Below are positions 3,323 to 55,548 of a DNA stretch of 55,548 bases, one piece after another. Made by a program: the position numbers and the translations under genes. A model generated the notes under the pieces. That model was not told the DNA's origin. It ran no database searches and worked only from the letters and a program-made list of their open reading frames with translations. Source of the stretch: a virus; IMG/VR virus record IMGVR_UViG_3300029611_000007; one strand, 5' to 3'. The stretch's first letter is position 1; the number at the start of each line of letters is the position of its first letter.

Positions 3323-3460
3323 ATGGAAATCGAATGTTTGACACCGGAATTTCCGCAAGGAGCAAGGGTATATAGTTCGGATGGTATTGCTCCAACTCTC
3401 CTGAACAGCGCGTCGGCCATGCGGTCACAGTCGATTTTGATTCGGGGGGGGGTAGCATGA
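3323..3460 (+). CDS. 5' fragment of the C5-MTase gene (would fuse in frame to ORF 3457-5160 if the G9 tract were G10)
   Basis: ggaga RBS plus ATG at 3323. 'GARVYSSDGIAPTLLNS' is a C5-MTase TRD-type motif. The frame ends just after the G9 tract. Confidence 0.5.
   Translation: MEIECLTPEFPQGARVYSSDGIAPTLLNSASAMRSQSILIRGGVA
3444..3452 (+). repeat. Homopolymer G9 at the junction of the two C5-MTase ORFs
   Basis: ttc-ggggggggg-tagc read directly. G10 gives ...ILIRGGGSMKVHSEK... in one frame. Confidence 0.9.
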
Positions 3461-5160
3461 AAGTTCACAGTGAAAAATCAATGTGTCTGGCCGGGAATTT
3501 TGTCGATAGAAACACCAACCAAAACGGGAGCGGCGTAAAAGAAGATACGTCTTTTACGCTGAATACAGTAGACCGCCACGCAGTCGCTTATAGAGAACTG
3601 CAATATGACAGTTACATAGAGGATGATGTGAGCGGAACGCTTAAAAAATCAGGTGGAGCGTTGGGAGGGGGTTCGGAAACGGTGGTTTGCGAAGAAAGAG
3701 AACAGCCGGACTGGATCGTCCGCCGATTGATTCCGCTGGAATGTAGTCGATTGCAAGGGTTCCCGGATGGATGGGCGGAAATTGAATCGCTGAAAAATCC
3801 GAAAGAGTTCAACTTCTGGCGGGAAGTCTATGCCAGAAGTTGCGAAATCAAAAAGACAAAACCAAAACAGACCATCCTTCGCGCGGACGGCGCAAAGAGC
3901 GATGAAGTGTTGATGCGGTGGCACGATGGGCTGCACAGTTTGGCGGCAGAATATGCGATGTGGGGAAATGGCATGGCGTTGCCGAATGCCCTTTTCTTTA
4001 TCCAGAACGCATTCCGCGAGCTTGGAAAGCCGCCGCATGAGGTGAAGCTGGGAAGCCTGTTTGACGGAAGCGGAACAATGCCGCTGTGCGCCGCCATGTG
4101 CGGCGGTCATCCGGTCTGGGCGAGTGAAGTAGAACCTTACCCGATTGCGGTGACAAGAACCCATCTGCCGCACATGAAGCATTTGGGCAGTGTAACGGAA
4201 ATAAAAGGGTCGAAAATCGAGCCGGTGGATATTATCACGTTCGGTTCACCCTGTCAGGACTTGAGCATTGCAGGGAAACGCGCCGGTTTGAAGGGAGAAA
4301 GGTCCGGCCTGTTCAGAGAAGCAATACGGATCATCCGGGAAATGCTGGCAGCAACTAACGGAAGATACCCACGCTTTGTGATCTGGGAAAACGTGCCGGG
4401 CGCACTTTCATCGAACGGAGGTGAAGATTTTGAAGTTGTCCTCAATGAACTGCTCTGTCTTAGAGAATTTACCGGAGGTGGAGCAGCTAAGTTTATTCGG
4501 CAGCACGGAAAGTGGAGGAACTTCGCAGATTACGGAGCTGTTGCCTATCGAATCGTCAACGCGCAATTTTGGGGAGTACCCCAGCGCAGGCGAAGAATAT
4601 ATGCTATCTGCGATACTTGTGGAGAATCCGCCGGAGTGGTCGTTTTTGAGCGAAAAGGCACTCAATGGAATTTTGACCCGTGCATCCCGCAGGGGGGGGA
4701 AGTTGCAGGACTTACTGCTGACTGCTATTCATGGCATGATCGAATGGTGGCATCAAAACCCAGCGGGGGGGGGTCAGCAGCATATACCATGAAAATCCGT
4801 GGAGGATGTGAGGGCGGTGGAAAGGGCGCACTTGTGCAAGAAGAACTTTCCGCAACGCTGGCAACCCATCAAGACCAAACGCTTTTTGAAAGCCACGGGT
4901 GCTTCCCAATAAACACAATGCTTGCGACGCGGTACAAAGCCCTTGGTCGAGGAACGGGACTTGGTATCGGCAACGATGGCGACCCGCAGTATACGATAAC
5001 AAAAGGACACGAACACGCAGTAGCGTATAGCGTTGGCGATGTACCGGAAACGGCCTTTGCAAATGCCGGGGATACGGTAGCAAGAACGCTGACCGCTCGT
5101 GCAGACGGAAGTCCGATGATTGACCGAGGCCCGAACATTGTAACACAGAAAGGAAAGTAG
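3457..5160 (+). CDS. DNA (cytosine-5) methyltransferase with permuted motif order (IX-X precede I-VIII)
   Basis: Motifs in order: 'RRLIPLECSRLQGFPD' (IX), 'GNGMALP' (X), then 'LFDGSG' (I), 'GSPCQDLS' (IV), 'ENVPG' (VI), 'QRRRR' (VIII), then TRD-like 'KIRGGCEGGGKGALVQEELSATL'. No IX/X at the C-terminus. Confidence 0.9.
   Translation: MKVHSEKSMCLAGNFVDRNTNQNGSGVKEDTSFTLNTVDRHAVAYRELQYDSYIEDDVSGTLKKSGGALGGGSETVVCEEREQPDWIVRRLIPLECSRLQGFPDGWAEIESLKNPKEFNFWREVYARSCEIKKTKPKQTILRADGAKSDEVLMRWHDGLHSLAAEYAMWGNGMALPNALFFIQNAFRELGKPPHEVKLGSLFDGSGTMPLCAAMCGGHPVWASEVEPYPIAVTRTHLPHMKHLGSVTEIKGSKIEPVDIITFGSPCQDLSIAGKRAGLKGERSGLFREAIRIIREMLAATNGRYPRFVIWENVPGALSSNGGEDFEVVLNELLCLREFTGGGAAKFIRQHGKWRNFADYGAVAYRIVNAQFWGVPQRRRRIYAICDTCGESAGVVVFERKGTQWNFDPCIPQGGEVAGLTADCYSWHDRMVASKPSGGGSAAYTMKIRGGCEGGGKGALVQEELSATLATHQDQTLFESHGCFPINTMLATRYKALGRGTGLGIGNDGDPQYTITKGHEHAVAYSVGDVPETAFANAGDTVARTLTARADGSPMIDRGPNIVTQKGK
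4692..4699 (+). repeat. Homopolymer G8 inside the C5-MTase ORF
   Basis: a-gggggggg-a read directly. Confidence 0.9.
4765..4773 (+). repeat. Homopolymer G9 inside the C5-MTase ORF
   Basis: cagc-ggggggggg-tcag read directly. Confidence 0.9.
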
Positions 5161-19920: not shown

Positions 19921-19973
19921 AGCCTTGCGGCTGGGGCTGGGCTGCTTTACGGTGCAACCCGGCTAGAGTATCC
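19921..19973 (-). repeat. Intergenic structured repeat, copy 1 (variant 2)
   Basis: agccttgcggct + ggggctgggctgc-tttacggt-gcaacccggctagagtatcc. Confidence 0.75.
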
Positions 19974-19976
19974 ATT

Positions 19977-21599
19977 TTATGCGTTGAGCTGTAAAAGCGT
20001 GGCTTTCGTGGGGATCAGATGCCGTGCAAGGGTGTCCGTGTAACTCGCTTCGCCCTCGTAGCTGTCCACGATCTTCTGCTCTGCCTTGCTCATGTCGTGA
20101 TAGGATTTCTTGCCGTAGGACGGCGGCAACCATCCTTTCTTCTGGCTGGCGAACAGGTTGAACGACTTCAAAACGTCGTCATTCGTGAATGTGATGTGGC
20201 AAGTGCCTTTTTTGTAGAAAGTGGCGGTGAAGTAGCGGAACTGCACGTTCTGGCTTTGTCTGCTCTCCTCGGCGGCTTTGAGCGTTGCCCGGAGTTCGTC
20301 GCCGTTGTACTTCTTGCCGTTCGTGTCGAGATAGTGCAGGGTGCGCTCGATTCGTGACAGGCAGCTTTCCGCGTTCCAACTGGGTTCAAACCGCCCGGAG
20401 TAATCACCCCACGCCGAACACCGAAAGATCACTTTCTTGCCGACTTTGTACGCTTCGTTCGTACACCAGCCGTTGTAGTAGTGGACATTCTTCGAGTATT
20501 CGGAATTGTAGTGCAGATTCGTCCAGTCGTCGAACAGTTCCACGATCTCGCTTTCGATGCCCTGCACGATGTTGGCGGACATTTCTTCCCGGATCGTGAG
20601 GATGTTGTAAGGGCTGAAATCGTAGTCAACCAGTTCGGAAACGCGGTTGTGATATTCGTCCTGCATCGCTCTGGTTAAGTTGTCCCGGATTTGGGGCAGG
20701 TCAAAGAGCTTTTGCCAGTACAAGCCACGCAAGCTGCGGATCGCTTCGTTATAGCTCTTGCTGAAGTTCAGCACTTCGGTTTCCTTGTCGTCTGCGGTAG
20801 CAGCAGAAAACAGGCTCTTGATTCCGTTGTACTCTTCGTAGATGCGGCGGATGCCCTCGGCGGCTGCGTTGTACCGTTCCACCGCGGCGGCGATGGGATC
20901 AGCAGACACCAGCGCGGCAAGCTGCGGATCGGCTTTCATGTGGTCGGTCATTTCGTTGTTGAGTTCCAACCGGATTTTGCTTACTGGCTCCTTGTCGGGA
21001 ATGTCAACGGAGATCAACGCCACTTCAACGCGGGCGGCGCGGCGGGCGTTCTTGAAAGCGTCCGGGATGTATTTGATCTGGGCGTTGAGTTCGTTTAGCT
21101 TTTGCGCCAGCTCTTTCCGCTCGTTCGTGTAGGGATTGCGGATAGTTTCGGCGTTGAGCAGACAGCGGATTTTGCCGCCGTCTTTCATGATCTCTAAAGC
21201 CTTGAGCAAGTGAGCAGCACCGGCGGAAAAAGGCGGGTTCATGATGATCGCCGCGTATTTCTTCGCGGGGCGGAACGTGAGAAAATCGTCATGCACCACG
21301 CGGAAACCGTCTTTCTTCAGTTTGGCGCGGAAGTCGCTGGACAGTTCCACACAGTCAAGATCAAACTCTTTCGCCTTGCTCGTGCTGTAACGGTCAAGCT
21401 CTCCCGTTTTGGGATCGTGCCGAATATCTGCGACGGCGTGAATCTGGCGGGCCAGTGCGCCGTCACCGGCAGAGGGTTCAAGGATGGGCTGCGGCAGGTG
21501 CTTCCAGCCGTATTTTGTGCTTTGCAGGCTGTAAGCCATTTCCCACGCGAGATTGTCCGGGGTGGGGTAAAAGTCCCGGCTATCGTTCGGGGTCGTCAT
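19977..21599 (-). CDS. N6-adenine DNA methyltransferase with a large C-terminal domain
   Basis: ATG at 21599 after aaaaggaga. 'ILEPSAGDGALA' (motif I) and 'AIIMNPPFS' (NPPF motif IV). Confidence 0.85.
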   Translation of the reverse strand: MTTPNDSRDFYPTPDNLAWEMAYSLQSTKYGWKHLPQPILEPSAGDGALARQIHAVADIRHDPKTGELDRYSTSKAKEFDLDCVELSSDFRAKLKKDGFRVVHDDFLTFRPAKKYAAIIMNPPFSAGAAHLLKALEIMKDGGKIRCLLNAETIRNPYTNERKELAQKLNELNAQIKYIPDAFKNARRAARVEVALISVDIPDKEPVSKIRLELNNEMTDHMKADPQLAALVSADPIAAAVERYNAAAEGIRRIYEEYNGIKSLFSAATADDKETEVLNFSKSYNEAIRSLRGLYWQKLFDLPQIRDNLTRAMQDEYHNRVSELVDYDFSPYNILTIREEMSANIVQGIESEIVELFDDWTNLHYNSEYSKNVHYYNGWCTNEAYKVGKKVIFRCSAWGDYSGRFEPSWNAESCLSRIERTLHYLDTNGKKYNGDELRATLKAAEESRQSQNVQFRYFTATFYKKGTCHITFTNDDVLKSFNLFASQKKGWLPPSYGKKSYHDMSKAEQKIVDSYEGEASYTDTLARHLIPTKATLLQLNA

Positions 21600-21622
21600 G
21601 GTTCGTTCTCCTTTTCGTGTTG

Positions 21623-21686
21623 GATTCACCCCGGCGGGGTGTGGGATCGGGTCGCTTTTCGTTCGGTGCGGCCCGTCAAGGTATCC
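21623..21686 (-). repeat. Intergenic structured repeat, copy 2 (variant 1)
   Basis: gattcaccccggcggggtgtgggatcgggtcgcttttcgttcggtgcggcccgtcaaggtatcc. Confidence 0.8.
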
Positions 21687-21689
21687 GTT

Positions 21690-22214
21690 TCACTGCTGGG
21701 CTAAAATCGTGCTCAACCATGTGGAAGAGTCGGCGCAATCAACCATTTTCGCAAAGTAGCGGCCCGTTACAAGCTGGAACGCATATTGCGTGGTGTAAGT
21801 GCCGCTGTACATTTCCCGGCTGCAAAACTCTTCGATGTTGTTCCGGGTGTGCCAGTTGCGTGGCGGCAACACGTTCAGCGCGTTCTCATAGTCCTGTTTC
21901 GTGATCTCGACCATTTCCGGGGTGAGCAGCTTTTCCCGCTCAAAGTCCAGCCATTCGCCGTAGGTCATGACGGCATAAGAGCGGGCCTTTTCTTGCGCAA
22001 GGCGGCTTTCCCAATATCCCCGGTCGCTTTCGTAGTCGCCGGACTCGATGATCTGGGTGATCCGCTGGATGCTTTCGGCGGTGCTCTTCCGGGCGGCATT
22101 CAACACCTCTTCGGCGGTGCGGGGCGTGGGCCAGCCGGACACGGTGAAAGCGTAGATCTGGACGTTGGGAACATCCACAACAACAAGTTCGTTCTTCTCT
22201 TCGTTGGCGGTCAT
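21690..22214 (-). CDS. Hypothetical protein (174 aa)
   Basis: ATG at 22214 after aaaaggaga. The track ORF extension to 22343 runs through the repeat. Confidence 0.7.
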   Translation of the reverse strand: MTANEEKNELVVVDVPNVQIYAFTVSGWPTPRTAEEVLNAARKSTAESIQRITQIIESGDYESDRGYWESRLAQEKARSYAVMTYGEWLDFEREKLLTPEMVEITKQDYENALNVLPPRNWHTRNNIEEFCSREMYSGTYTTQYAFQLVTGRYFAKMVDCADSSTWLSTILAQQ

Positions 22215-22239
22215 GGTATAATCTCCTTTTCGTTTTCGT

Positions 22240-22302
22240 GATTCACCCCGGCGGGGTGTGGGGCTGGGCTGCTTTGTGCGGTGCAACCCGGCTAGAGTGT
22301 CC
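22240..22302 (-). repeat. Intergenic structured repeat, copy 3 (variant 2)
   Basis: gattcaccccggcggggtgtggggctgggctgctttgtgcggtgcaacccggctagagtgtcc. Confidence 0.8.
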
Positions 22303-22311
22303 GCGCTGGAA

Positions 22312-23430
22312 TCATGCCAGCACACCGGCGGCGATGCTTGCAAAGTCGAGCTGTTGGACGCTGGGAACCATTTCGGGGGCGTTGTGCTTGTGGTTGAGTT
22401 CGTCGAGAGCCATCACAAACGCGGCGGCTTCGCGGTCGCTGCTGATAAAGTCGCAACGGCAATTCGTGAATTGCTGGACAATGGCCGAAAATTCGGGGTC
22501 GTTCTTGCTCTTCTGGTCAAACGTCTTGACGGCTTCCCGGTATTCCTTGCTGTCGTTGTCGTCGTGGGTGCGGTAAAAGTTGGAATACCACTTTTCAAAA
22601 ACCGGCTCTAATTCTTCCATGCTCACGGTGACGGCGGGGGCTTCGTCTGCTGCTTTTTCGGCAGCTTTCCGGGTGGCGGTCGCCTTGCGCCATGCTTCCA
22701 GCGTGGCAGCTTGTCCGGCGCGGTCGGTTTCGGGAACGGCCATAAATTCGTGCATTGCCTTGCGTTCTGCCTTTTTGAGTTCGGCAACGTCGGCGGCGGG
22801 CTTCTTCGTGGTGCGGGGATTCTTCGGGGCCGGTTTCGTGGGAAGCGGTTCAACGTGAACCAGTTCGGGAAGTTCGTGGTGCTCTTCAACGACGACCGGC
22901 GCGGGGCGGGCAACTTCGGCGGCAGCTTTTGCGGCGGCTTCCTTTGCGGCCTTGCGTTCGGCGGCAAGCTGCTTGTTGTAAGCGATGATCTCCGCCGTGG
23001 ACTTGAACCGGGCTTGCGGGGCTGGCTTGCTGCTTTCAACCTGTAAGCAACTGAAAAGATGGGATTTCGTAGGGTAGTAATGCGGATCGGGTGCGGCTTC
23101 CTTGCCCTCTGCCGCGGCCTTTTCGCGCTGCTCTTTGCTGGGCTTCGTGGTGTACTTCCACAAGTAGCATTCAAGCAACGCTTTTTCGCCTTTCTTGACG
23201 CTCTTGCCCTCTTTCTTCCAGAAGTCGAACGTGTGCAGTTCGTCCGCTGCAAACATGATCTCAATGTCCGCGGCGGTGGCGGGCTTTTCGTTGCCGTCCT
23301 TGTCAACGATCTTGCAAGATGCAGCAACGGCGGCGATCTCTTCCGGGGTGTGGTGCGCGGTGGCGATCTGGTGAAGCGTGGCCGGGTCAAGACGTTCGGC
23401 GGCGGCGCGGATGATCTGTTTATTCGTCAT
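22312..23430 (-). CDS. ArdC-N-like (ssDNA-binding/antirestriction-type) domain protein with Ala/Lys/Pro-rich linker
   Basis: ATG at 23430. 'LHTFDFWKKEGKSVKKGEKALLECYLWKY' resembles the ArdC N-terminal domain. Confidence 0.6.
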   Translation of the reverse strand: MTNKQIIRAAAERLDPATLHQIATAHHTPEEIAAVAASCKIVDKDGNEKPATAADIEIMFAADELHTFDFWKKEGKSVKKGEKALLECYLWKYTTKPSKEQREKAAAEGKEAAPDPHYYPTKSHLFSCLQVESSKPAPQARFKSTAEIIAYNKQLAAERKAAKEAAAKAAAEVARPAPVVVEEHHELPELVHVEPLPTKPAPKNPRTTKKPAADVAELKKAERKAMHEFMAVPETDRAGQAATLEAWRKATATRKAAEKAADEAPAVTVSMEELEPVFEKWYSNFYRTHDDNDSKEYREAVKTFDQKSKNDPEFSAIVQQFTNCRCDFISSDREAAAFVMALDELNHKHNAPEMVPSVQQLDFASIAAGVLA

Positions 23431-23465
23431 GGTAAATACTTCCTTTCGTGTTTCGTTTTGCGGAT

Positions 23466-23533
23466 CGTCCCGGCGGTGTGCCGGGGGAATGGGATCGGGT
23501 CGCTTTCGTTCGGTGCGGCCCGTCAAGGTGTCC
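23466..23533 (-). repeat. Intergenic structured repeat, copy 4 (variant 1)
   Basis: cgtcccggcggtgtgccgggggaatgggatcgggtcgctttcgttcggtgcggcccgtcaaggtgtcc. Confidence 0.8.
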
Positions 23534-23541
23534 GGCGGGGT

Positions 23542-23883
23542 TCAATCTTCGGTTTCGTCGCAATCGTGGCAATACAGCGCGTCAATAACCTTGTCGTCGC
23601 TGAAATCGTCCGGGGTTCCGTTGGCATCGACCACAAGATCGATCCGGTCAAAAATCCGCAAATCGGTTTCACCGTCCACCAGAAAATACCAGTCGTCGCC
23701 GTCCAGCGCGTCACTGCACCAGACTTCAATCTGGTTTTCGTTGGTGGCGGTCATGCCTTTCACAATGGCCGGGGCGATATACCGCCCAAAAGGACCGACT
23801 TTGTAGGGACAGGCGGCAGCGGCGCGGGGTGCGCTGGACAGCAGCGCGGCGGCAAGTGCGGCGGCGGTCAAAATTCGTTTCAT
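23542..23883 (-). CDS. Secreted or lipoprotein-like small protein
   Basis: 'MKRILTAAALAAALLSSAPRAAAAC' is a signal peptide with Cys; acidic C-terminus. Confidence 0.7.
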   Translation of the reverse strand: MKRILTAAALAAALLSSAPRAAAACPYKVGPFGRYIAPAIVKGMTATNENQIEVWCSDALDGDDWYFLVDGETDLRIFDRIDLVVDANGTPDDFSDDKVIDALYCHDCDETED

Positions 23884-23928
23884 GGTTGTTTCTCCTTTTC
23901 GTTTCGTGGTGTGGCTTTTCGTGCTTTT

Positions 23929-23991
23929 CCCCGGCTATTGTCGGGGCGTGGGATCGGGTCGCTTTTCGTGGTGCGGCCCGTCAAGGTATCC
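23929..23991 (-). repeat. Intergenic structured repeat, copy 5 (variant 1)
   Basis: ccccggctattgtcggggcgtgggatcgggtcgcttttcgtggtgcggcccgtcaaggtatcc. Confidence 0.8.
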
Positions 23992-23996
23992 GGGGG

Positions 23997-24386
23997 TCAT
24001 GCGTAAATTTCATTGAACACTTCGACGGCGTTCCATTGCACCGCCTTTTCACGCTGGGCAGCTTTCGCGGCGTTCTGGTCGCCGCCGTTGGCTTTCAATG
24101 CCATATAGAAAGCATCAACAAGGGCGGCTTTTTGCCGTTCGCGTTCCCGATATGCGGCGATCTGTCTAGCGTCATACACCTTGACCGCCCACGATTCATA
24201 GTGAATCGGGGTCAATGTTTCATGGTGCAAGCCCTTGCAGCGGTTCAGAACGGCAACGATCTTTCCGGCATCCTCATAAGTTGGGGCGGCGATGATGTAG
24301 CAAGGGACAGCGGCGCGGGCTTGCTTCTCGATGTTCCACCGGTGACGGGTGGCGATCTGGTTTATTTTCTTGTCGAATGCGGTCAT
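23997..24386 (-). CDS. Hypothetical protein (129 aa)
   Basis: aaaaggaga RBS plus ATG in minus sense. Confidence 0.7.
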   Translation of the reverse strand: MTAFDKKINQIATRHRWNIEKQARAAVPCYIIAAPTYEDAGKIVAVLNRCKGLHHETLTPIHYESWAVKVYDARQIAAYRERERQKAALVDAFYMALKANGGDQNAAKAAQREKAVQWNAVEVFNEIYA

Positions 24387-24413
24387 GTTCTCGATCTCCT
24401 TTTGATTTTGATT

Positions 24414-24476
24414 TGCCCCGGCGGGGCGGTGGCATAGGGTTGCTTTTGCGGCAGCGGTGCAGCCCTTGAAAGTGTC
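24414..24476 (-). repeat. Intergenic structured repeat, copy 6 (variant 3)
   Basis: gccccggcggggcggtggcatagggttgcttttgcggcagcggtgcagcccttgaaagtgtcc. Confidence 0.7.
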
Positions 24477-24556
24477 CGCTTGACTTTACCGGCGAAAGCT
24501 GGTAAAATCATTGCAAGATCGGAACTCGAAAACCTATCTTGCAAGCCTGTCACCCT

Positions 24557-24655
24557 TTACCGGGTGGCGGGCTTTTTCTTTTGCCATTCGGCAAGAAGAG
24601 CGGCCCAAACTGCCCGCTTGACGGCTTTCGGCAGCTTGAAAAACTCTTTATTCAC
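24557..24655 (-). CDS. Very small basic protein (32 aa), not in the ORF track
   Basis: Minus sense: aagaggtgaaaagc-GTG NKEFFKLPKAVKRAVWAALLAEWQKKKPATR*. Bracketed by repeat copies 6 and 7, like the other genes. Confidence 0.35.
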   Translation of the reverse strand: MNKEFFKLPKAVKRAVWAALLAEWQKKKPATR

Positions 24656-24678
24656 GCTTTTCACCTCTTTTCTGGTTT

Positions 24679-24741
24679 GATTCACCCCGGCGGGGCGTTG
24701 GGATCGGGTCGCTTTCAGCGGTGCGGCCCGTCAAGGTGTCC
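24679..24741 (-). repeat. Intergenic structured repeat, copy 7 (variant 1)
   Basis: gattcaccccggcggggcgttgggatcgggtcgctttcagcggtgcggcccgtcaaggtgtcc. Confidence 0.8.
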
Positions 24742-24747
24742 GGCGGT

Positions 24748-39183: not shown

Positions 39184-39332
39184 AGGGCGGCTACAAAACA
39201 ATCAGAAAGGCGGCGATAGCTCTCGCCACAGTCACGCACACAAGCGCAGATTTTTACCTGAACTTGCCTGTGCGTGAGCTGGTGGAGATTCACGGGGAGG
39301 TTGCGGAGGAATGGCAAAAAATCAAGAACTAG
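39177..39332 (+). CDS. -1 frame extension of the tail chaperone (G/GT-type fusion product)
   Basis: Own translation: RLKGGYKTIRKAAIALATVTHTSADFYLNLPVRELVEIHGEVAEEWQKIKN*. Confidence 0.5.
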   Translation, partial: RLKGGYKTIRKAAIALATVTHTSADFYLNLPVRELVEIHGEVAEEWQKIKN

Positions 39333-42300
39333 AGCTTTCCATCCTGATCGGCGGTCACGTTGACAACTCACTTGCGCAGGCGGTGAAGTTGGCGAACACG
39401 CAGATCGGGAGCATTGCAAACGGCGCATCGAAGTTCGCGGAGAATATCGCCAAAGGTGCAGTAGCCGCCGCCGGTGGCATAGCCGCAGCCGTGGTCGATA
39501 CCACGAAAGAATCGGTTTCGTTTGAAAGCGAAATGCTGGATGTGACGAAGTACGTTAGCGGACTGACGGACGACAGCGGAAAAGTCATTCGTAGCAACTA
39601 CGAAGAAATGTCGAAAGACATTCTTGATTTGAGCACGGATATTCCGTATACCGCCGAAGAACTGACCCGTCTTGCGGCTGCTGCCGGTCAGTCTGGTAAG
39701 AGCATGGACGACCTGATAAGTGACGGCTTCCTGCGTGATGTTGCTGAAATGGGAACGGCTATGGACATTTCCGCAGATCAGGCGGGCGACTGGGCCGCAA
39801 AGTGGGAAGTGGCTTTCGACATAAACCACGATCAGGTTATGGAGCTGGCTGACCAGATCAACTATCTGGGGGCGCATTATGCGACGACCGCCGCAGAAAT
39901 CGCCCAGACGGTGAATGACACCGGTTCTCTCGGCCAGATCGCCGGTATGGACGTTGCAAGTACGGCGGCTCTGTCTACGGCACTTCTGGCAATGGGTGTT
40001 GACTCCGGTAAGGTTGCAACGTCTATTCGCCGGATGTACACAAACCTCTCGATGGGATCAAAGGCGACCGACGCACAGGCGGCGGCATTTGAACAGCTCG
40101 GCTTTACTGCGGAACAGTTTGCAAAGGATATGCAGACGGATGCACCGGCAGCAATAAAGAGCCTGTTCACGGCCATTGGAAGCCAGCCGAAAGACAAACA
40201 GGTTGGCTATCTGAAAACGCTGCTCGGCCAATGGGCCATTGAATCCGGTGCAAAGCTGACCGGAAACCTTGACCTGTTCATAAAGACGCTGGACGATGTG
40301 GGCGATGCTTCTAAATACAACGGCAGTATGTACAAGGAGTTCTTGCTGAAATGCGAAACCTCCGAATCTGTACTGACGATGTTGAGCAACGCATGGCGGG
40401 CTGTCCGCATCGAAGTCGGAAACAACTTCCTGCCTATTCTGAAAGACGTTGCCGGGTTCGGCATCGAGAAGATCAACGACTTCCGCGCAGCCCTGCCGGA
40501 TATAACGGCACGGGTAAAGGAAGTAATCGAATACCTGCTGAACAATGGCGACAAGGTAGCCGCCACGCTCGGCGGCATCGGCGCGGCGTGGGCCGGTATG
40601 CGGTTTGCGCCGCAGATTCTTCAAGTCGTCAGCGGGGTCACAAAGGGAGTGAGCGGGGCCGCTACCGGCGGCGGGAAGATTTTCAACGGCATCCGCACCA
40701 TCGCCAGCGGCATGAGCTACGGCGCACAGATGGCGGGCATCCAGTCCCCGTCTATTGGCCCGCAGCCGCAAAGCTCGTTCCTGAAAAATATTGCGACTAA
40801 GGCGAACGGTGCGGGTGTTGGCCTGTGGGCTACACTGAAAAACTTTACCGGCCTGACAAAGAACGATGGAAAAACAAAAATCGACTTTGTTCGAGACGTT
40901 ATGGGCGCATCGGAACGCGGGCAGACCATCCGGCAGAGCTTCCCTTATATCAACGGCGTTATGTCTGCTGCGTCTGACTTCGGAAAGACGAAAATCGCAT
41001 CCGGCATCGGTGGCGTTACCAAGCAGATTTTCACGGGAATCATCGGCCCGAACGGTATCGACGTGGCGAAACTTGCAGGAGGACTAAAAAACTTCGGTGG
41101 GGCTACGGCTGCTGTATTTGGAGCGATGCCCGGAAATGCTGCAAAAGCTGGCGTGAATTTCCTCTCAAAGATGAACTTTGCAAACGGTACTGGTTTGGGA
41201 AGAACCATCTACCGAATGGCAAACAGCACGCAGGGATTGAGCGGAAAGGCTGCTCTTGCGCAGATGGGGTACATCTTCAACCAGACGCGCCCCGGACAAG
41301 TGCTGTCTGGCGCAACCGGATTTGTTAAAAATGCAGCTCCGGCGGTGGCAGACTTCGGCGGCAAGGCGTTCGGGCTGGGCAAGGCCGTGGCATCGCCCGT
41401 CCTGAAAGGCGGCTTCAACATCTTCGCGGGCCTTATGTCCACATTCGGCCCGGTGATCGCCGGTCTTGGTTCTGTGATCGCGGTGGTCAGCCTGTTGGGA
41501 GATCACTTCGAGGACATTCGCCAGATCATCGGACAGGTGTTTGGCGAAAAGGGCTTGACGCTCTTTGACGGATTCACCGGGAAAGTGCAGGGCATCGCAG
41601 GGAACATCCACGATACCTTGGCTGGCGCGTTCTCGCTGGAAAACCTGCAAAACATCCAGCAGAGTTTGAGCGGGAAGAGCATCTTCGGCATCGACGATCT
41701 GGGAACTACGTTTGGCGCGGTGATCCCGATTATCGAGTCGGTAAAGGGTTTGATCGGGCAGATCGTAGACCTCGGCGTGAACCACATCAAGCCGCTGCTG
41801 GCGGACGTGCTGAGTTTCGCTGTGAACGAGCTGTTTCCGGCGGTGTCGCCGCTGATAAGCGCGATTATTAGTCTGGTCGGTACGACCCTGATAAACGCGA
41901 TCAAGTTGGTAGTCGATGTGATCCACGGCCTGCTGCCGGTGATAGAGCCTGTGATCCAGTCCATCGTTGGGCTGATAAAGGGCATCGTATCGGTGACGGT
42001 CACGGTCGTCAACGGCATCATTCGCGCCCTGAATAGCTTCTCGTTCACGGTTCCCCAGTGGCTTGAAAATGTCCCAGTGGCGAAGAACTTCGCCGGTAAG
42101 ACGTTCGGCTTTAACCTGTCGGAAGTGGCAATGCCCGCTTTCGCAAACGGCGGCTTTACCCGTGGAGTGAGCATCGCCGGTGAAGCTGGAACGGAAGCTG
42201 TCATTTCTTTCAAGCCCAGCGTCCATGACAGCAACGTGGAAAACTGGGTGCGGGCTGGCCGTATGCTGGGCGTGTCTGGTGAGGACGCGACCCGCGCAGC

Positions 42301-43363
42301 CGGTGTGCAGAACGTCCAGTATTTTGCGAACGGCGGCTTCACCGACGGAAGCAAGGAAAAGCTGGACAACTTGATCGACTTCTCCAAAGCCTACGACGAT
42401 TACGCTCTGCGCTCCAACGGCATCAAATCCACCGGTGATGTGGTGTCGATGATGTGGACGGTGGCGAACAACGCCATGTCCGGGGACGGCTCTTTGGAAC
42501 TGGTGGCGACCAGCATCGCCGCCGACGTTGCACCCATCATCCTGAACAAGTATCTGGGAAGCGACAGCACGGTAACAAAGGCCGTAACGGAAGCCGCCAA
42601 GACCTACAACGGCGGCACGGTGCTGTCGAGCTGGCAGGATGGTGTCTTGACCGACACTGGAACGCCGCTCTATATGCTGTCGCAGCAGGACGCGGCACAG
42701 CCGCCCGCCGCAGAAACGCCCGATGTTCCGGCTGAAACGCGCCAGACCGCGAAAGACTTTGCAGAGAACAGCGCAAGTGCAACGGGCAACGAGAAGCTGG
42801 ACAACTTGATCGACTTCTCCAAAGCCTATGCCGACTACGCCCTGCGCTCCAACGGCATCCGCACGGCGGGGGACGTTGCATCTATGCTGTGGACGGTAGC
42901 CAACAACTCGCTGGCCGGTGACGGCTCTCTGGCTCTGGCAGCTACCAGCATTGCCGCTGACGTTGCGCCGCTGGTACTGAACAAGTATTTTGGCGGGGAC
43001 AGCACGATAACCTCTATGCTGACCGAAGCGGCCAAGACCTACAACGGCGGCACGGTGCTGTCGAGCTGGGAAAACGGTGTTCTGACCGACACCGGAACAC
43101 CGCTCTATATGCTGTCGCAGAGGGACACCGAGAAAACCCTGCCGGATATGCCGTCCAGTGCCTACCGCGCCGCGGGCGGCGGTGACGGCGGAAGTTCCAG
43201 CAGCATCAAGGATTCCCAGTTTGTCTTTTCGCCGCACATCACTGTCGGCAGCGGGACAAACATGGAAGAGCTTGAACGTGAAATGCGGAAGCTGTTTGAA
43301 GAGTTCAAACAGGAAATGCGTGAAGAAGAGCGTGAACAGGGCCGTGTCAAATATGCTTCGTAA
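39311..43363 (+). CDS. Tail tape measure protein
   Basis: 1350 aa, Ala/Gly-rich and TM-like central region, after the chaperones. Confidence 0.9.
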   Translation: MAKNQELELSILIGGHVDNSLAQAVKLANTQIGSIANGASKFAENIAKGAVAAAGGIAAAVVDTTKESVSFESEMLDVTKYVSGLTDDSGKVIRSNYEEMSKDILDLSTDIPYTAEELTRLAAAAGQSGKSMDDLISDGFLRDVAEMGTAMDISADQAGDWAAKWEVAFDINHDQVMELADQINYLGAHYATTAAEIAQTVNDTGSLGQIAGMDVASTAALSTALLAMGVDSGKVATSIRRMYTNLSMGSKATDAQAAAFEQLGFTAEQFAKDMQTDAPAAIKSLFTAIGSQPKDKQVGYLKTLLGQWAIESGAKLTGNLDLFIKTLDDVGDASKYNGSMYKEFLLKCETSESVLTMLSNAWRAVRIEVGNNFLPILKDVAGFGIEKINDFRAALPDITARVKEVIEYLLNNGDKVAATLGGIGAAWAGMRFAPQILQVVSGVTKGVSGAATGGGKIFNGIRTIASGMSYGAQMAGIQSPSIGPQPQSSFLKNIATKANGAGVGLWATLKNFTGLTKNDGKTKIDFVRDVMGASERGQTIRQSFPYINGVMSAASDFGKTKIASGIGGVTKQIFTGIIGPNGIDVAKLAGGLKNFGGATAAVFGAMPGNAAKAGVNFLSKMNFANGTGLGRTIYRMANSTQGLSGKAALAQMGYIFNQTRPGQVLSGATGFVKNAAPAVADFGGKAFGLGKAVASPVLKGGFNIFAGLMSTFGPVIAGLGSVIAVVSLLGDHFEDIRQIIGQVFGEKGLTLFDGFTGKVQGIAGNIHDTLAGAFSLENLQNIQQSLSGKSIFGIDDLGTTFGAVIPIIESVKGLIGQIVDLGVNHIKPLLADVLSFAVNELFPAVSPLISAIISLVGTTLINAIKLVVDVIHGLLPVIEPVIQSIVGLIKGIVSVTVTVVNGIIRALNSFSFTVPQWLENVPVAKNFAGKTFGFNLSEVAMPAFANGGFTRGVSIAGEAGTEAVISFKPSVHDSNVENWVRAGRMLGVSGEDATRAAGVQNVQYFANGGFTDGSKEKLDNLIDFSKAYDDYALRSNGIKSTGDVVSMMWTVANNAMSGDGSLELVATSIAADVAPIILNKYLGSDSTVTKAVTEAAKTYNGGTVLSSWQDGVLTDTGTPLYMLSQQDAAQPPAAETPDVPAETRQTAKDFAENSASATGNEKLDNLIDFSKAYADYALRSNGIRTAGDVASMLWTVANNSLAGDGSLALAATSIAADVAPLVLNKYFGGDSTITSMLTEAAKTYNGGTVLSSWENGVLTDTGTPLYMLSQRDTEKTLPDMPSSAYRAAGGGDGGSSSSIKDSQFVFSPHITVGSGTNMEELEREMRKLFEEFKQEMREEEREQGRVKYAS
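42356..42690 (+). repeat. Tape-measure internal duplication, copy 1
   Basis: 'EKLDNLIDFSKAYDDYALRSNGIKSTGDV...GTPLYMLSQQD'; the partner copy is at 42791-43125. Confidence 0.85.
42791..43125 (+). repeat. Tape-measure internal duplication, copy 2
   Basis: 'EKLDNLIDFSKAYADYALRSNGIRTAGDV...GTPLYMLSQRD'. Confidence 0.85.
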
Positions 43364-49647: not shown

Positions 49648-50757
49648 ATGGCAACTAACTTTGATGCTACCCGCCTTGCGGTGCAGACTGCATTCCCCAC
49701 CAATGACCTGCTCTTTGACGACAAGGAAATGCCGTCCATCCATGTGTTTATCCCGAAGTTCCGCCTGTGCGATGTGCTGTCCACCCAGAGCACCGAAACC
49801 CACCCGGCGTTCATCGTGAACGGCAAGGAGATTGACGGCTTCTGGTTTGGCAAGTATCAGAGCACCTGCACCGACACTGGCCGCGCATACAGCCTGCCCG
49901 CAGAAGATCCCACCGTGTCCCATCCGCTTGACTGGTTCGTGACCCAGACCAACGCCAAGGGCGCGGGCTGGCACGAGATCAGCAATGCAGAGTGGGCGGC
50001 GGTCGCACTGTGGTGTCACAAGCACGGTTGTGAGCCGAAAGGCAATAACAACTATGGCAAGGACAGCTCCGAAACCTACTACGAAGCAATCCCTGTCCCC
50101 GGTGTGCAGGACAACGGCAAGACTGCCCGTGTCCGCACCGGCACTGGCCCGCTGCCGTGGAGCCACAACGGGCGCATGGACGGCATCTGGGACATGAACG
50201 GTAATATTTGGGAGTGGTGCATCGGTCTGCGTCTGGTCAAGGGCGAGTTGCAGATCATCCCCAACAACAACGCCGCCGACAACAGCGTGAGCAACAGTGC
50301 ATCCAGCAGCGCATGGCGGGCAATCAAGGCCAGTGACGGCTCTCTGGTTGCACCGGACGGCAACGGCACGACTACCGGAACCATCAAGCTGAACCGAGTA
50401 AACAATCACTGGGAGTGGGATACCACAATCAGCGATTCCAAGGACGAGAGCCGCAGCGCAGCGTTCAAGGACACCACGGCTGCGGCCAGTGTTGGCGATG
50501 CTGCAAAGCTGATCCTTATGTCCCTTGCTCTGATGCCGGACACCGCGCCGACCGGTGATGGCATTGATGCAAACTATGGCGGCGATTACTTCTGGGCGAA
50601 CAATGCCGCTGACGAGCGGTGTCCGATCCGCGGCGGCTACTGGGGCGGTGGCGAGGGTGCCGGTGTGTTCTACTTGAGCCTCAACCATCCGCGCTCTGGT
50701 TCGTGGGCGCTCAGCGGGGGCCGTTCCGCTTTTGTAAAGCTGCCCGCTGAAGCCTGA
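49648..50757 (+). CDS. DGR target protein 1 (FGE-sulfatase / C-type-lectin-fold receptor-binding candidate carrying VR1)
   Basis: 'GAGWHEISNAEWAAVALW', 'MNGNIWEWCIG' and C-terminal 'RGGYWGGGEGAGVFYLSLNHPRSGSWALSGGRSAF'. The 3' end matches the TR. Confidence 0.9.
   Translation: MATNFDATRLAVQTAFPTNDLLFDDKEMPSIHVFIPKFRLCDVLSTQSTETHPAFIVNGKEIDGFWFGKYQSTCTDTGRAYSLPAEDPTVSHPLDWFVTQTNAKGAGWHEISNAEWAAVALWCHKHGCEPKGNNNYGKDSSETYYEAIPVPGVQDNGKTARVRTGTGPLPWSHNGRMDGIWDMNGNIWEWCIGLRLVKGELQIIPNNNAADNSVSNSASSSAWRAIKASDGSLVAPDGNGTTTGTIKLNRVNNHWEWDTTISDSKDESRSAAFKDTTAAASVGDAAKLILMSLALMPDTAPTGDGIDANYGGDYFWANNAADERCPIRGGYWGGGEGAGVFYLSLNHPRSGSWALSGGRSAFVKLPAEA
50618..50731 (+). repeat. DGR variable repeat VR1
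   Basis: 114 nt aligned by hand to the TR. 15 differences, all at TR adenines. Confidence 0.9.
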
Positions 50758-50766
50758 TAAGCTGAC

Positions 50767-50786
50767 GGGCTGCGCGGTAGCGCAGA
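50767..50786 (+). promoter_or_regulatory. GC hairpin 3' of VR1 (candidate DGR target-recognition hairpin)
   Basis: ggctgcgc-ggta-gcgcagac, 35 nt after VR1. The partner lies at 1864-1883. Confidence 0.6.
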
Positions 50787-50808
50787 CCAAAGCAAAAATA
50801 GAACATAA

Positions 50809-50843
50809 GGCGCGGTGGGCCAGCGGCCCGCCGCGCTGATTTT
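50809..50843 (+). terminator. Strong rho-independent terminator between target 1 and avd
   Basis: gcgcggtgggcc-agc-ggcccgccgcgc (12-bp stem with one G.U) followed by tgattttt. Confidence 0.7.
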
Positions 50844-50857
50844 TGGAGGTGTTGACT

Positions 50858-51262
50858 GTGCCGAACGCAGAAGCCGAAGTGCCGCCCCAGCAGGGCGACA
50901 AAAAGAAAAAGCCTGAACCGTTCCATTTGGCGGAGAAGATCGGAGAAATGGTTGACTATGGCTACCCGCTCACAATGAGCTTTCCTCGGAAAGACCGTGA
51001 GCTGGCCGATGAACTTCGCAGAAGTATGTTGGCAATTCTCCGGTACAGCGTTGAGATAGACCGGCGATATTTCAAAAAGACCACCACGCAAAATATGGAC
51101 GTGGAGCTGGCCGTATTGAGAAAGTTTGTACGGCTGGCGGCGAGTAAAGATTTACACGGGGGCAAGTACCCGCCGCCCTTGACGATGCACCAGTATGAAA
51201 CGTGGGCGAAATTCAACGATGAAATAGGCAGGCTGTTGGGCGGCTACATTGCTTCGCTCTAA
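50858..51262 (+). CDS. avd: DGR accessory variability determinant (Avd, four-helix-bundle type)
   Basis: GTG at 50858, 8 nt after ggagg. Basic N-terminus; 'ELAVLRKFVRLA' and C-terminal 'FNDEIGRLLGGYI' are typical of Avd. Located between target and TR. Confidence 0.8.
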   Translation: MPNAEAEVPPQQGDKKKKPEPFHLAEKIGEMVDYGYPLTMSFPRKDRELADELRRSMLAILRYSVEIDRRYFKKTTTQNMDVELAVLRKFVRLAASKDLHGGKYPPPLTMHQYETWAKFNDEIGRLLGGYIASL

Positions 51263-51300
51263 AGCCTGCCATTTTCATACGGGAACGGGTTATTTACGGC

Positions 51301-51414
51301 GTGTCCGATCCGCGGCGGCAACTGGAACAATGGCGAGAGTGCCGGTGTGTTCAACTTGAACCTCAACAATCCGCGCTCTAATTCGTGGACGAACAACGGG
51401 GGCCGTTCCGCTTT
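51301..51414 (+). repeat. DGR template repeat (TR)
   Basis: Non-coding copy of VR1/VR2, rich in aac/aat triplets (24 adenines counted). Lies 185 nt upstream of the RT. Confidence 0.9.
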
Positions 51415-51599
51415 ACACCACAAGAACATTTTTGTTCGGCGGGATTCCACGCCGGATATGGGGGCTGTGATCTACGGGTCGCAGTCGGTGTGTGGGTCTA
51501 AAGGAATCCGTTTCCGTTCCGGTCAGCACGACCGGAAAAAATATGTATTGCCGCGAAAACGGAAACGCTACGCGCGGCGCGGTGGAATTGAGGGCGGAA

Positions 51600-52760
51600 A
51601 TGCCAAACGAAATAAACACGATTCAAAATGCGTGGAATGTGATCTGCGAGTTTGAATACCTCGTAGAAGCTGACCACTCAGCCCGCAAGGGCAAACGATA
51701 CCGGGCGGAAGTGCTGGCGTTTACTGCAAATCTGGAACACAATCTGTTTCAGATTCAAGAGCAGATGATCGCCGTGGACTGTCCGCTCGGCCCATACCGG
51801 AAACTGTGGGTGTCCGTGCCGAAGAAGCGGTTAGTGATGGCCTTGCCATACTCTGACCGGATCGTGCAATGGTCACTGTACCAATACCTCAATCCGATTT
51901 ACGACCGGCTATTTATTGAGGACTCCTATGCCTGTCGCAAAGGCAAGGGAAGCCACAAGGCCGCAGCACGGTTACAATACTGGATGCGGCAAGTAGACCG
52001 GAAACCGGGGCCGGGATGGTACTACCTGAAACTGGATATAAGCAAGTTCTTTTACCGGGTGAACCATGCGAAGCTACTGAAAATTTTGGCAAAGCGTATC
52101 AAAGACCCGGAGTTGATGAAGTTCCTCGGAAGCGTGGTAAACAGCAGAGCAGAGCCGTTCGGGTTGCCCCGCGGCAAAGCCCCGCAAGATACTCCGCCGG
52201 AGGAATGGTTGTACGATGTGGGGATGCCGATAGGCAATCTCACTTCTCAACTCTTCGCCAATATTTACATGAACGAACTTGACCAGTATTGCAAGCACGT
52301 TCTGAAAATCCACTACTACATCCGGTACATGGACGACATTGTGATCCTTGGGGAGAACAAGGAAACCTTGCACGAGTGGAAAGCGAAGATCGAAACATTC
52401 CTGCATGAAGAGTTGGAGCTTGACCTGAACAATAAAACCTGCATCCGACCGGTGCGGATGGGCGTGGAGTTTGTTGGTGTGCGCATTTGGCCCGCCTACA
52501 TGAAGCTGCGCAAAAGCACGGTTGGCCGGTTGAAACGGGAGGTCAAGAAAATATCAGAGCTTTACGCTTCCGGGCAGATGGATGAAGAAGCGTTCAAACG
52601 CCGTGTTGCCAGTATTAAGGGGCTGCTGGAACACACGGAGAGTGAGAGTCTACGGTGGCGGCTGAACCAGATTTATCTTAATGCTGTACGGAAGTACGGA
52701 AAGACAGACCCAGAGGAAACGCTCTGGAAGGGAAAGAACGATGGAAAGAAAGTGGCCTGA
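51600..52760 (+). CDS. DGR reverse transcriptase
   Basis: ATG at 51600 after gaggg. 'PIGNLTSQLFANIYMNELD' and 'IRYMDDIVILG' (YMDD). The track ORF start at 51492 would run into the TR-proximal spacer. Confidence 0.9.
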   Translation: MPNEINTIQNAWNVICEFEYLVEADHSARKGKRYRAEVLAFTANLEHNLFQIQEQMIAVDCPLGPYRKLWVSVPKKRLVMALPYSDRIVQWSLYQYLNPIYDRLFIEDSYACRKGKGSHKAAARLQYWMRQVDRKPGPGWYYLKLDISKFFYRVNHAKLLKILAKRIKDPELMKFLGSVVNSRAEPFGLPRGKAPQDTPPEEWLYDVGMPIGNLTSQLFANIYMNELDQYCKHVLKIHYYIRYMDDIVILGENKETLHEWKAKIETFLHEELELDLNNKTCIRPVRMGVEFVGVRIWPAYMKLRKSTVGRLKREVKKISELYASGQMDEEAFKRRVASIKGLLEHTESESLRWRLNQIYLNAVRKYGKTDPEETLWKGKNDGKKVA

Positions 52761-54154: not shown

Positions 54155-55401
54155 GTTACATTTGAAATGCGAAACAAAGCGACAAAGAAAGGAGGAAAAA
54201 TAACGTGCGAAGATTCAAACATCTAACATGGACAGACCGGCTTCGGATCGAGAAGTGGCTGAACGAGGGCATGAAACCCAAGGACATTGCCAGCAAATTG
54301 CGGGTGCATATCTCCACGGTGTACAATGAGCTACACCGCGGGGAGTATCAGCGGCTGGTGGGCGATACATGGGAGCTTGTGAGCGCGTACAGCCCGGACA
54401 TTGCGGAGCAGAAATACCAAGCGCACCTGCGGGACAAAGGCCCAGCCCTGAAAATCGGCAAGGATCACGAGCTTGCAAACTACATCGAAACCACGATCCT
54501 GAATAAAGAGTGCAGCCCGGCGGCGGTGTTCGGATATGCGCAGCAGGAGGGCAAGCAGTTCAAGACGAGCGTTTCTGTGCAGACGGTATACCACTATATA
54601 AAGAAAGGCTTGTTCCTGAATCTCACTCAAGAAGAACTTCCCCGGCACGGGAAACACAAGCAGGCATATAAGAAAGTCTGCAAGAAAGAAGCTGCTCGCG
54701 CCCCGGCGGGGGAGAGTATCGAACAGCGGCCCACGGAAGTGAATGAACGGCAGGAGTTCGGACACTGGGAGGGCGACACGGTGTATAGCGGCAAGGGAAA
54801 AGTAAAGACGACCTGTGCGCTGTTCACCATGACGGAGCGCAAGACGCGCAACGAGATTATAATAGGGGTTCCGAACCGCAAGGCAGAAACCATTGTGAAA
54901 GCGGTTGACGCGCTGGAAAGGAAGCTGGGCGCAAGGAAGTTCCGGCTGATCTTCAAGAGCATCACGTTTGACAATGGCACAGAATTTGCGGCGGCGGATA
55001 TGCTGGAACGGTCGTGCATCAACAAGACGATCCCGCGGACAAAGGTTTACTTCTGCCATCCCTATTCTTCATGGGAGCGCGGCAGCAATGAACACGTCAA
55101 CGGCATGATTCGCAGGAAGCATCCGAAAGGCACGGACTTTTCAAAGGTTTCCAAAGAGCAGTTGGCGGAGACAGAGAAGTGGATCAATGAGTACCCGCGA
55201 AAAATCTTCGGGTACAAGAGCAGTGCGATCATGTTCCAACAGTGTTTGAATGAACTTGGCATAGCCATGTAAGAAAAGTGCAACACCACACCCCAAAAGA
55301 AAGCGTGGTAATAAAGAAAATACGGCGAACAGAATAGATCAAAGGTTGGCTGCAAGAAAAGTGAAACCTTGACGGCCTATTTGTATTGTTTCAAAATGAA
55401 C
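54155..55401 (+). mobile_element. Possible IS30-like element; boundaries uncertain
   Basis: Only weak imperfect inverted repeats were found by eye: gttacatttgaaatgcgaaacaaa (54155-54178) against the reverse complement of 55379-55401 (gttcattttgaaacaatacaaat). Confidence 0.3.
54205..55272 (+). CDS. IS30-family DDE transposase/recombinase
   Basis: GTG after aaaggagg. N-terminal HTH; 'FGHWEGDTV', 'ITFDNGTEFA', 'SWERGSNEHVNGMIRR' form the DDE triad context typical of IS30. Confidence 0.9.
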   Translation: MRRFKHLTWTDRLRIEKWLNEGMKPKDIASKLRVHISTVYNELHRGEYQRLVGDTWELVSAYSPDIAEQKYQAHLRDKGPALKIGKDHELANYIETTILNKECSPAAVFGYAQQEGKQFKTSVSVQTVYHYIKKGLFLNLTQEELPRHGKHKQAYKKVCKKEAARAPAGESIEQRPTEVNERQEFGHWEGDTVYSGKGKVKTTCALFTMTERKTRNEIIIGVPNRKAETIVKAVDALERKLGARKFRLIFKSITFDNGTEFAAADMLERSCINKTIPRTKVYFCHPYSSWERGSNEHVNGMIRRKHPKGTDFSKVSKEQLAETEKWINEYPRKIFGYKSSAIMFQQCLNELGIAM

Positions 55402-55449: not shown

Positions 55450-55548
55450 GCTGAATAGTTAAAATAAACTCGAAAGAAATCGACACGGTTTCTTCCGGGT
55501 TTATTTTTTTGCGCATTTTTAGGAAACAAGGGGGATGAGAGAGCTTTG
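55450..55548. repeat. Terminal direct repeat, second copy of bases 1-99
   Basis: Identical 99-nt string at the start of the window. Confidence 0.95.

Follow-up and report, generated by a model that had tools for sequence, protein, structure and literature searches.

The DNA studied here is the IMG/VR virus record IMGVR_UViG_3300029611_000007, a stretch of 55,548 nt that was analysed as a whole (hereafter the window) and to which all positions refer. Towards its right end it carries a diversity-generating retroelement (DGR), consisting of a target gene with a variable repeat (VR1), the gene avd, a template repeat (TR) and a reverse transcriptase (RT) gene; a second target gene with its own variable repeat (VR2) lies near the left end. 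All features of the element lie on the plus strand. The findings are read as a functional DGR with one template and two targets, carried by a temperate Faecalibacterium phage of the human gut that resembles the Faecalibacterium phage FP_Lagaffe (Lagaffevirus; Cornuault 2018, Gulyaeva 2024; hereafter Lagaffe), and a probability of about 0.95 is assigned to this reading. A preliminary description, made from the sequence without database searches, had proposed a complete target-avd-TR-RT cassette; every element named there was present and backed by automated checks, but the adjacent cassette is not the whole system, as the second, non-adjacent target had been missed.

Target gene 1 (49648-50757) encodes a C-type-lectin-type DGR variable protein of 369 aa, with VR1 forming the final 38 codons ahead of a C-terminal tail of seven residues. 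A repeat search returned a direct repeat of 114 nt, 50619-50732 (VR1) and 51301-51414 (TR), with an identity of 87%. The repeat and its length had already been recognized, with VR1 placed at 50618-50731, which is shifted by 1 nt and introduces one non-adenine mismatch at the edge. In the ungapped comparison, TR and VR1 differed at 15 positions, all 15 of them adenines in the TR, which is the count obtained earlier by hand; given the 24 adenines among the 114 nt of the TR, the hypergeometric probability that all mismatches fall on adenines was 6e-13. In the frame of ORF (open reading frame) 49648-50757, the TR adenines occupy codon position 1 (n=13) and position 2 (n=11) and never position 3, so that a stop codon cannot arise in the VR. 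The TR contains ten AAY codons, and the 14 variable codons correspond to a coding capacity of about 1.5e14 protein variants.

A scan of the whole window for the TR, with the adenine positions left free, yielded a third TR-like copy at 1709-1822. VR2 (1712-1822, aligned to TR positions 51304-51414) lies at the end of target gene 2 (657-1853; 398 aa), a paralogue of target gene 1 with an additional N-terminus of 85 aa, located 3' of an ORF encoding a helix-turn-helix (HTH) protein. Regarding the comparison of VR2 with the TR, 19 mismatches were counted, 18 of them at TR adenines and one a T>C change. Both VRs are located at the 3' end of a coding target and stop 7-10 codons short of the gene end. 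The two target proteins are 32% identical (E 2e-35).

In a PDB sequence search, target 1 aligned over its full length with TaqVP (5VF4, E 7e-49), its VR coinciding with the C-terminal VR of TaqVP, and target 2 yielded a hit to the same structure (E 2e-40). TaqVP is the DGR variable protein of Thermus aquaticus and has a C-type-lectin fold (PMC6328139); this fold is assigned to both targets by homology to the TaqVP crystal structure. Of the FGE-sulfatase/C-type-lectin motifs reported earlier for target 1, the C-type-lectin part is borne out by the TaqVP homology; no Pfam FGE-sulfatase match, and no other Pfam or NCBIfam domain, was found for target 1 or target 2 at E<=0.01. Among the PHROGs, phrog_2889 matched both proteins (4e-113 for target 1, 1e-88 for target 2), and the C-terminus of target 1 also matched phrog_5302, annotated as 'tail protein'. 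The genes 5' of target 1 are a baseplate J-like and a baseplate I-like gene followed by three small conserved ORFs of unknown function, not the fibre-like genes that had been described there. To judge from this position, where the baseplate/tail module ends, and from the homology to DGR variable proteins, target 1 is most likely the receptor-binding tip.

The possibility was also considered that the element is a DGR whose targets are not host-receptor-binding tail proteins, serving instead as mucus-directed or environmental adhesins, or acting outside the virion, in which case its output would be something other than host-range switching. Target 2 lies at the left prophage end among early and lysogeny genes, outside the structural module and beside HTH and transposase genes, phrog_2889 is annotated as 'unknown function', TaqVP has no known ligand, and other Faecalibacterium phage DGRs target immunoglobulin-like (Ig-like) Hoc-type proteins (Gulyaeva et al. 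2024). Against this, the baseplate J/I-like genes immediately precede target 1, here and in Lagaffe, the C-terminal region of target 1 matches the 'tail protein' PHROG, and the Lagaffe homologues of the targets align by HHpred to Mtd (Gulyaeva et al. 2024), the target protein of BPP-1, whose DGR (mtd-avd-TR-brt) is the prototype. A role of this kind is regarded as unlikely, though it keeps an appreciable share of the probability, and receptor binding by target 1 is preferred.

The avd ORF extends from TTG 50843 to 51262, between target 1 and the TR, and its translation probably starts at GTG 50858, located 8 nt past the sequence GGAGG (50845-50849). The Avd-like nature of this ORF, claimed earlier from its predicted helices, was confirmed by Pfam bAvd (72.6 bits, 4e-20; cut-off 40 bits) and by PDB matches to Bbp7 (4DWL, 2e-5) and to chain B of 8UB7, so that an Avd gene adjoins both TR and RT. 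Between target 1 and avd, an intrinsic-terminator-like stem-loop followed by a T-run was located at 50809-50846 (13-bp stem, 11 GC pairs), in agreement with the terminator noted before. The RT gene (51600-52760; 386 aa) begins 185 nt past the TR end, as previously stated, and its ATG is preceded by a GAGGG ribosome-binding site. This ATG is the likely RT start because homology to the Lagaffe RT (47% identity) sets in about 15 residues past it, a covarying helix lies over the alternative ATG at 51543, and GAGGG is found upstream.

The RT matched Pfam RVT_1 (8e-23) and contains the motifs IGNLTSQ and YMDD, in line with the DGR RT clade signatures (I/V/L)GxxxSQ in motif 4 and YxDD in motif 5 (PMC3521204). 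Its best PDB match was chain A of 8UB7 (2.4e-45), an entry identified as the BPP-1 bRT-Avd complex because it also contains an 'Avd' chain; motifs and closest solved structure both place the enzyme in the DGR clade, to which it had been attributed from its motifs. An RT of another class (group II intron, retron or Drt/Abi), with the repeat representing an unrelated duplication of the 3' end of a gene, would find a foothold in NCBIfam, where the top models were group II intron RT (TIGR04416, 1.8e-35), Drt3a and retron St85 RT, and in the label 'retron-type' given to homologues in some database sources. The NCBIfam scores were, however, far under the curated cut-offs (122.8 bits vs 300, 66 vs 200 and 52 vs 235, respectively), and in the PDB search bRT ranked about 28 orders of magnitude ahead of group II intron RTs (2e-17) and 'retron-type' RTs (4e-16). 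The SQ motif, the adjacent avd gene and the adenine-only mismatches point the same way, and Rfam at its gathering threshold returned no family in the DGR region, no intron RNA in the window and no retron RNA. Next to no weight is therefore left for an RT of another class.

For the comparison with natural relatives of the DGR, related loci were gathered with a degenerate pattern derived from the TR, which yielded 22 IMG/VR loci and one cultured genome. The TR was 100% identical in nine independent IMG/VR contigs and in the Faecalibacterium intestinale isolate. Regarding the VRs, seven copies of VR1 and 12 copies of VR2 (window included) were available, every one distinct, and all 24 adenine-templated columns were variable in the VR1 set as well as in the VR2 set, whereas only 3/609 (VR1) and 4/1044 (VR2) non-adenine cells deviated from the TR. 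Between 52% and 57% of the adenine-templated sites were changed. The 250-nt flanks of the VRs were mostly 98-100% identical across the relatives. Because the 19 VRs are distinct almost only at TR-adenine positions, with an invariant TR and near-identical flanks, both targets must undergo diversification by the element in nature. The restriction of population heterogeneity to adenine-templated positions, anticipated in the preliminary description, is met with here across related contigs, in both targets.

Regarding the kind of change, the fixed substitutions at adenine-templated sites in the window and in the related loci L002-L025 and L027-L105 comprised 55-72% G, 18-25% T and 9-20% C. The in-vitro spectrum of bRT corresponds to A>T first (order T>G>C), and about 50% of the adenine sites are changed in BPP-1. 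The excess of A>G may be due to selection (for Gly, Asp or Ser codons) or to a misincorporation bias specific to the clade.

Several observations weigh against a functional DGR and were considered together. The evidence for activity comes from a comparison between genomes and not from reads of the source sample, and the A>G-rich spectrum differs from the in-vitro spectrum of bRT. One VR2 change, the T>C mentioned above, is not located at a TR adenine. Avd scored 71.1 bits (8e-20) against NCBIfam DivGenRetAVD, which is under the 80-bit cut-off. A promoter scan upstream of avd returned no sigma-70-like site, leaving avd-TR-RT without a detected promoter and with a strong terminator immediately 5' of it, and searches for a priming site and for a TR:spacer primer duplex identified neither. 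The only published read-level test of the related Lagaffe prophage gave no sign of activity in culture (Gulyaeva et al. 2024).

The lack of read-level variation in that prophage and the lack of a detected promoter would also suit a fossil DGR, whose repeats and genes would be mere remnants of a once-active element and whose VR differences between genomes would have been inherited from long ago. However, the 19 VR copies, from genomes whose flanks are nearly identical, mutually differ at up to 24 adenine positions, and the TR and the non-adenine positions are constant in these same genomes, which requires many recent and independent adenine-specific events; moreover, none of the ORFs or cis elements is disrupted. 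A fossil is accordingly held to be very improbable, and the reading as a functional DGR is retained.

An alignment of the RT yielded 80 viral loci whose RTs were 51-99% identical, and 62 of these loci had an upstream VR/TR pair with adenine-only mismatches in the same arrangement. From these relatives, 20 non-redundant segments spanning the avd end, the TR and the spacer were aligned and subjected to RNAalifold and a controlled pair count, which yielded five covariation-supported helices outside the TR. Helix H1 (51280-51291 with 51505-51516) brackets the TR and has 12 bp, nine of them with compensatory changes, 97% of the cells being paired in the 20 sequences. Helix H2 (51443-51452 with 51490-51498) was recovered by RNAalifold and pair counts, helix H3 (51464-51472 with 51477-51485) has 9 bp and a UACG loop, helix H4 (51517-51523 with 51531-51537) is followed by A6, and helix H5 (51549-51555 with 51573-51579) has an inner stem capped by GAAA. 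The structured spacer RNA (51415-51579) accordingly comprises H2, H3, the 3' arm of H1, H4 and H5. Over the five helices, 95.5% of the cells were paired, compared to 39-45% when the partners were slid by 1-3 columns, and compensatory (double) changes were found in 34/46 pairs, a value reached by none of 500 shuffles. The single-sequence minimum free energy fold of the TR region was marginally better than that of shuffled sequences (z -2.1), for which reason the structural claim rests on covariation and not on energy.

For BPP-1, and by prediction for 207 other DGRs, Handa et al. described a 'cPRT-stop' duplex of the sequences flanking the TR, a neighbouring stem-loop with adenosines behind it, and an Avd-binding stem-loop of about 9 bp capped by a tetraloop. 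H1, H3 and H4 match these element types; the corresponding roles would apply to them by analogy, not by sequence homology. A structured RNA around the TR is in any case part of the element. One candidate primer duplex, TR GUUCCGC with spacer GCGGGAU, was weak and without clean covariation, and no claim is made for it.

The sequences of TR, VR1 and VR2 share a GC-rich 3' end, CGGGGGCCGTTCCGCTTT, beyond which they diverge. Past both VRs, a hairpin with a GGTA loop was located, and none past the TR: target-site hairpin 1 (50767-50788, GGGCTGCGC-GGTA-GCGCAGACC) has a 6(+2)-bp stem and lies 37 nt past VR1, and target-site hairpin 2 (1864-1883, GGCTGCGC-GGTA-GCGCAGCC) has an 8-bp stem and lies 43 nt past VR2. 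Efficient retrohoming requires, downstream of the VR, a GC-rich stem of 7-10 bp capped by a 4-nt 5'-GRNA loop, with a published distance from VR to hairpin of 4-34 bp (Guo et al. 2011); the GGTA loop fits the GRNA consensus, and the spacing here is 37 and 43 nt. Among 49 non-redundant relatives, 25 had, 34-53 nt past the VR, a GRNA loop on a mismatch-free stem of 6 bp or more, compared to 6/980 control windows, and most of the remaining loci had a hairpin with a mismatch or with tandem G·A pairs. The stem sequences differ, in a covarying manner, among the loci of the clade. The element therefore has a GC-rich 3' end of the IMH type (initiation of mutagenic homing) with a downstream GRNA hairpin, whereas a BPP-1-style IMH/IMH* pair with few mismatches is absent here.

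The stretch of 37-43 nt between VR and hairpin is occupied by a phased array in which four to five CTG triplets recur every 7-8 nt. Array 1 (50740-50772) has CTG at 50740, 50747, 50754, 50762 and 50770, and array 2 (1843-1868) at 1843, 1850, 1858 and 1866; each array includes the stop codon of its target gene. In the loci of the RT clade, the CTG registers are fixed at -36, -29, -22, -14 and -6 from the hairpin loop. The mean number of CTG per 48 nt was 3.9 past the VRs, compared to 0.85 in control windows and 1.4 past the TRs, and in the whole window an array of four CTG occurs only at the two VR sites (0.02 expected by chance). No description of such an array was found in the DGR literature searched. 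The clade of gut-phage DGRs that carries it has RT identities of 47-100% and thousands of metagenomic copies. Tentatively, and with somewhat less than even confidence, the CTG array may be a previously undescribed determinant of target recognition in this clade, a functional counterpart of the 21-bp IMH of BPP-1. It could then act at the level of DNA or single-stranded DNA as a binding or positioning site that marks the recipient copies for the retrohoming machinery, which, if true, would account for two targets located 49 kb apart in the prophage being served by a single TR.

In the regions 50733-50790 and 1823-1885 and in the related loci L026-L105, the CTG triplets mostly occur as (A/G)CTGA, which gives stops in all three frames within at most 55 nt past the VR (38/49 loci vs 57/1960 control windows); the stop codons of both targets belong to this pattern.

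The following course of events is proposed, largely after the BPP-1 paradigm. An RNA reaching from the avd end through the TR and the spacer would be transcribed; its fold, with the 12-bp duplex bracketing the TR, is demonstrated by the covariation, and its elements would serve RT-Avd binding as well as priming and stopping of the complementary DNA (cDNA). RT and Avd would copy the TR into cDNA with misincorporation opposite adenines only, a mechanism taken over from BPP-1, the outcome of which is observed in the VRs. The cDNA would then be exchanged for 111-114 nt of homologous sequence at the 3' end of one or the other target gene. Recipient copies would be marked by the shared GC-rich 3' end, the phased CTG array and the hairpin with GRNA loop, and with array and hairpin missing at the TR, information would flow one way only. 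The expected outcome is a stop-free diversification of the ligand-binding face of two proteins with a C-type-lectin fold.

Compared with BPP-1, the element has the same order of target, avd, TR and RT, adenine-specific TR-to-VR differences with about 50% of the adenine sites changed, an RT and an Avd homologous to bRT and Bbp7, a GC-rich repeat 3' end with a GRNA-loop hairpin past the VR, and a spacer RNA with a TR-bracketing duplex, a stem-loop capped by a tetraloop and a further one with an A-run behind it. It has two targets, whereas BPP-1 has one. In BPP-1 the hairpin lies 4 nt past the VR with no CTG array behind the VR, whereas here the distance is 37-43 nt and is filled by the phased array; the 21-bp IMH of BPP-1 is located inside the TR/VR homology, whereas the array found here past the VRs is without counterpart past the TR. 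The substitution spectrum is rich in A>G here (fixed changes), compared to A>T first for bRT in vitro. BPP-1 integrates at a tRNA-His att site, whereas integration here appears to be of transposase type and multi-site. Regarding TaqVP, the homology extends over the full length of both targets, with the VRs falling on its C-terminal VR; TaqVP is, however, bacterial, chromosomal and not phage-borne, and target 2 adds its 85-aa N-terminal segment.

The closest cultured phage is Lagaffe, to which the cassette shows a nucleotide identity of 68.5% over 25% of its length. Both phages share the gene order baseplate J/I, three small ORFs, target 1, avd, TR, RT, lysis genes, IS30-family transposase, HTH and target 2, both have Faecalibacterium as host genus, and both have two VRs in two paralogous Mtd/TaqVP-like targets with a CTG array past each VR. 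At the amino acid level, identities to Lagaffe were 47% for the RT, 36% for target 2 (gp40) and 49% for the transposase. The Lagaffe homologue of the transposase is annotated as 'Integrase, IS30 transposase family' and its second target as a SUMF1-like gene. In Lagaffe, VR2 is internal, about 118 codons short of the stop, whereas here it is C-terminal; the N-terminal extension of target 2 is missing in Lagaffe; a search past the Lagaffe VRs did not find the hairpin with the 4-nt GRNA loop that is present past both VRs here; and the lysis genes include an M15 peptidase here and an amidase in Lagaffe. By synteny, amino acid identities of 36-49% and host, the phage is Lagaffe-like; it represents a lineage distinct from Lagaffe and is probably not of the same genus.

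A DGR with two VRs in two paralogous Mtd-like proteins has already been published for Lagaffe, where both VRs vary among cognate IMG/VR genomes (Gulyaeva et al. 2024), and in phages it is common for a DGR to have, within one prophage, one target next to it and another at a distance (Wu et al. 2018); the present element bears out what is known of a familiar kind of system and adds comparatively little to it. Its value is mainly that of a clean and well-documented example of a DGR. The phage is of high abundance, with 718 and 2,905 member sequences in the 99%-identity clusters of its RT and hence thousands of metagenomic sequences, and its host belongs to a health-associated gut genus, with the prophage present in a cultured strain and thereby experimentally accessible. 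For the question of how DGR cDNA locates and enters its target, the RNA structure, the GRNA hairpin and the CTG array offer concrete cis elements that are accessible to mutation in the E. coli reconstitution.

Positions 1-99 of the window are identical to 55450-55548, so that the window represents a circular form of 55,449 bp. The homology of related contigs breaks off exactly at positions 1 and 55446, with host DNA outside, and these are therefore the prophage ends. The distance from TR to VR2 is 5.7 kb downstream in the circle and 49 kb in the integrated prophage, where the two lie at opposite ends. The prophage is present in the cultured strain F. intestinale CLA-AA-H281, one contig of which holds TR and VR1 near 94 kb and VR2 near 143 kb.

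At the junction of the circle, the right prophage end is joined to the left prophage end by 3 nt (GGA). In other contigs, no two host flanks were the same among seven left and four right junctions, and in the contigs L012 and L017, both of which come from one metagenome, a 15-bp sequence, ATGCAAGACAAAGTC, is present on both sides, resembling a target-site duplication. ORF 54205-55272, which ends 175 nt from the right end, encodes an IS30-family DDE transposase (HTH_38 and rve). The varied flanks, the duplicated 15 bp and the transposase point to a transposition-like, multi-site integration and not to an att-site integrase; no convincing terminal inverted repeats were found when the prophage ends were searched for them. 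At the left end, just 5' of target 2, ORF 97-360 (87 aa) resembles the HTH N-terminus of IS30-type transposases, with PHROG matches to phrog_11420 (DNA-binding protein) and phrog_4646 (transposase); its Lagaffe counterpart is the HTH gene gp38, located after the transposase of that phage. This ORF may encode a cofactor of transposition or excision.

Elsewhere in the genome, seven copies of the Rfam family RAGATH-5 (RF02685; 54-68 bits, cut-off 50 bits) were found on the minus strand at 19925-24743, sitting between the ORFs of a minus-strand operon that includes a DUF4942/Dam-like methyltransferase gene (19977-21629); the AT skew is inverted in this region. A C-5 cytosine DNA methylase gene (ORF 3457-5160; segment 3308-5152) behaves as a presence/absence cassette, as the segment is missing in the collinear relatives L002, L012 and L019, in which window position ~3307 is joined directly to ~5153. 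Two segments of about 340 nt (42351-42689 and 42786-43123), about 80% identical and 435 nt apart, form an internal duplication in the tape-measure-sized ORF 39311-43363 (1350 aa) and give rise to BLAST cross-matches with related contigs.

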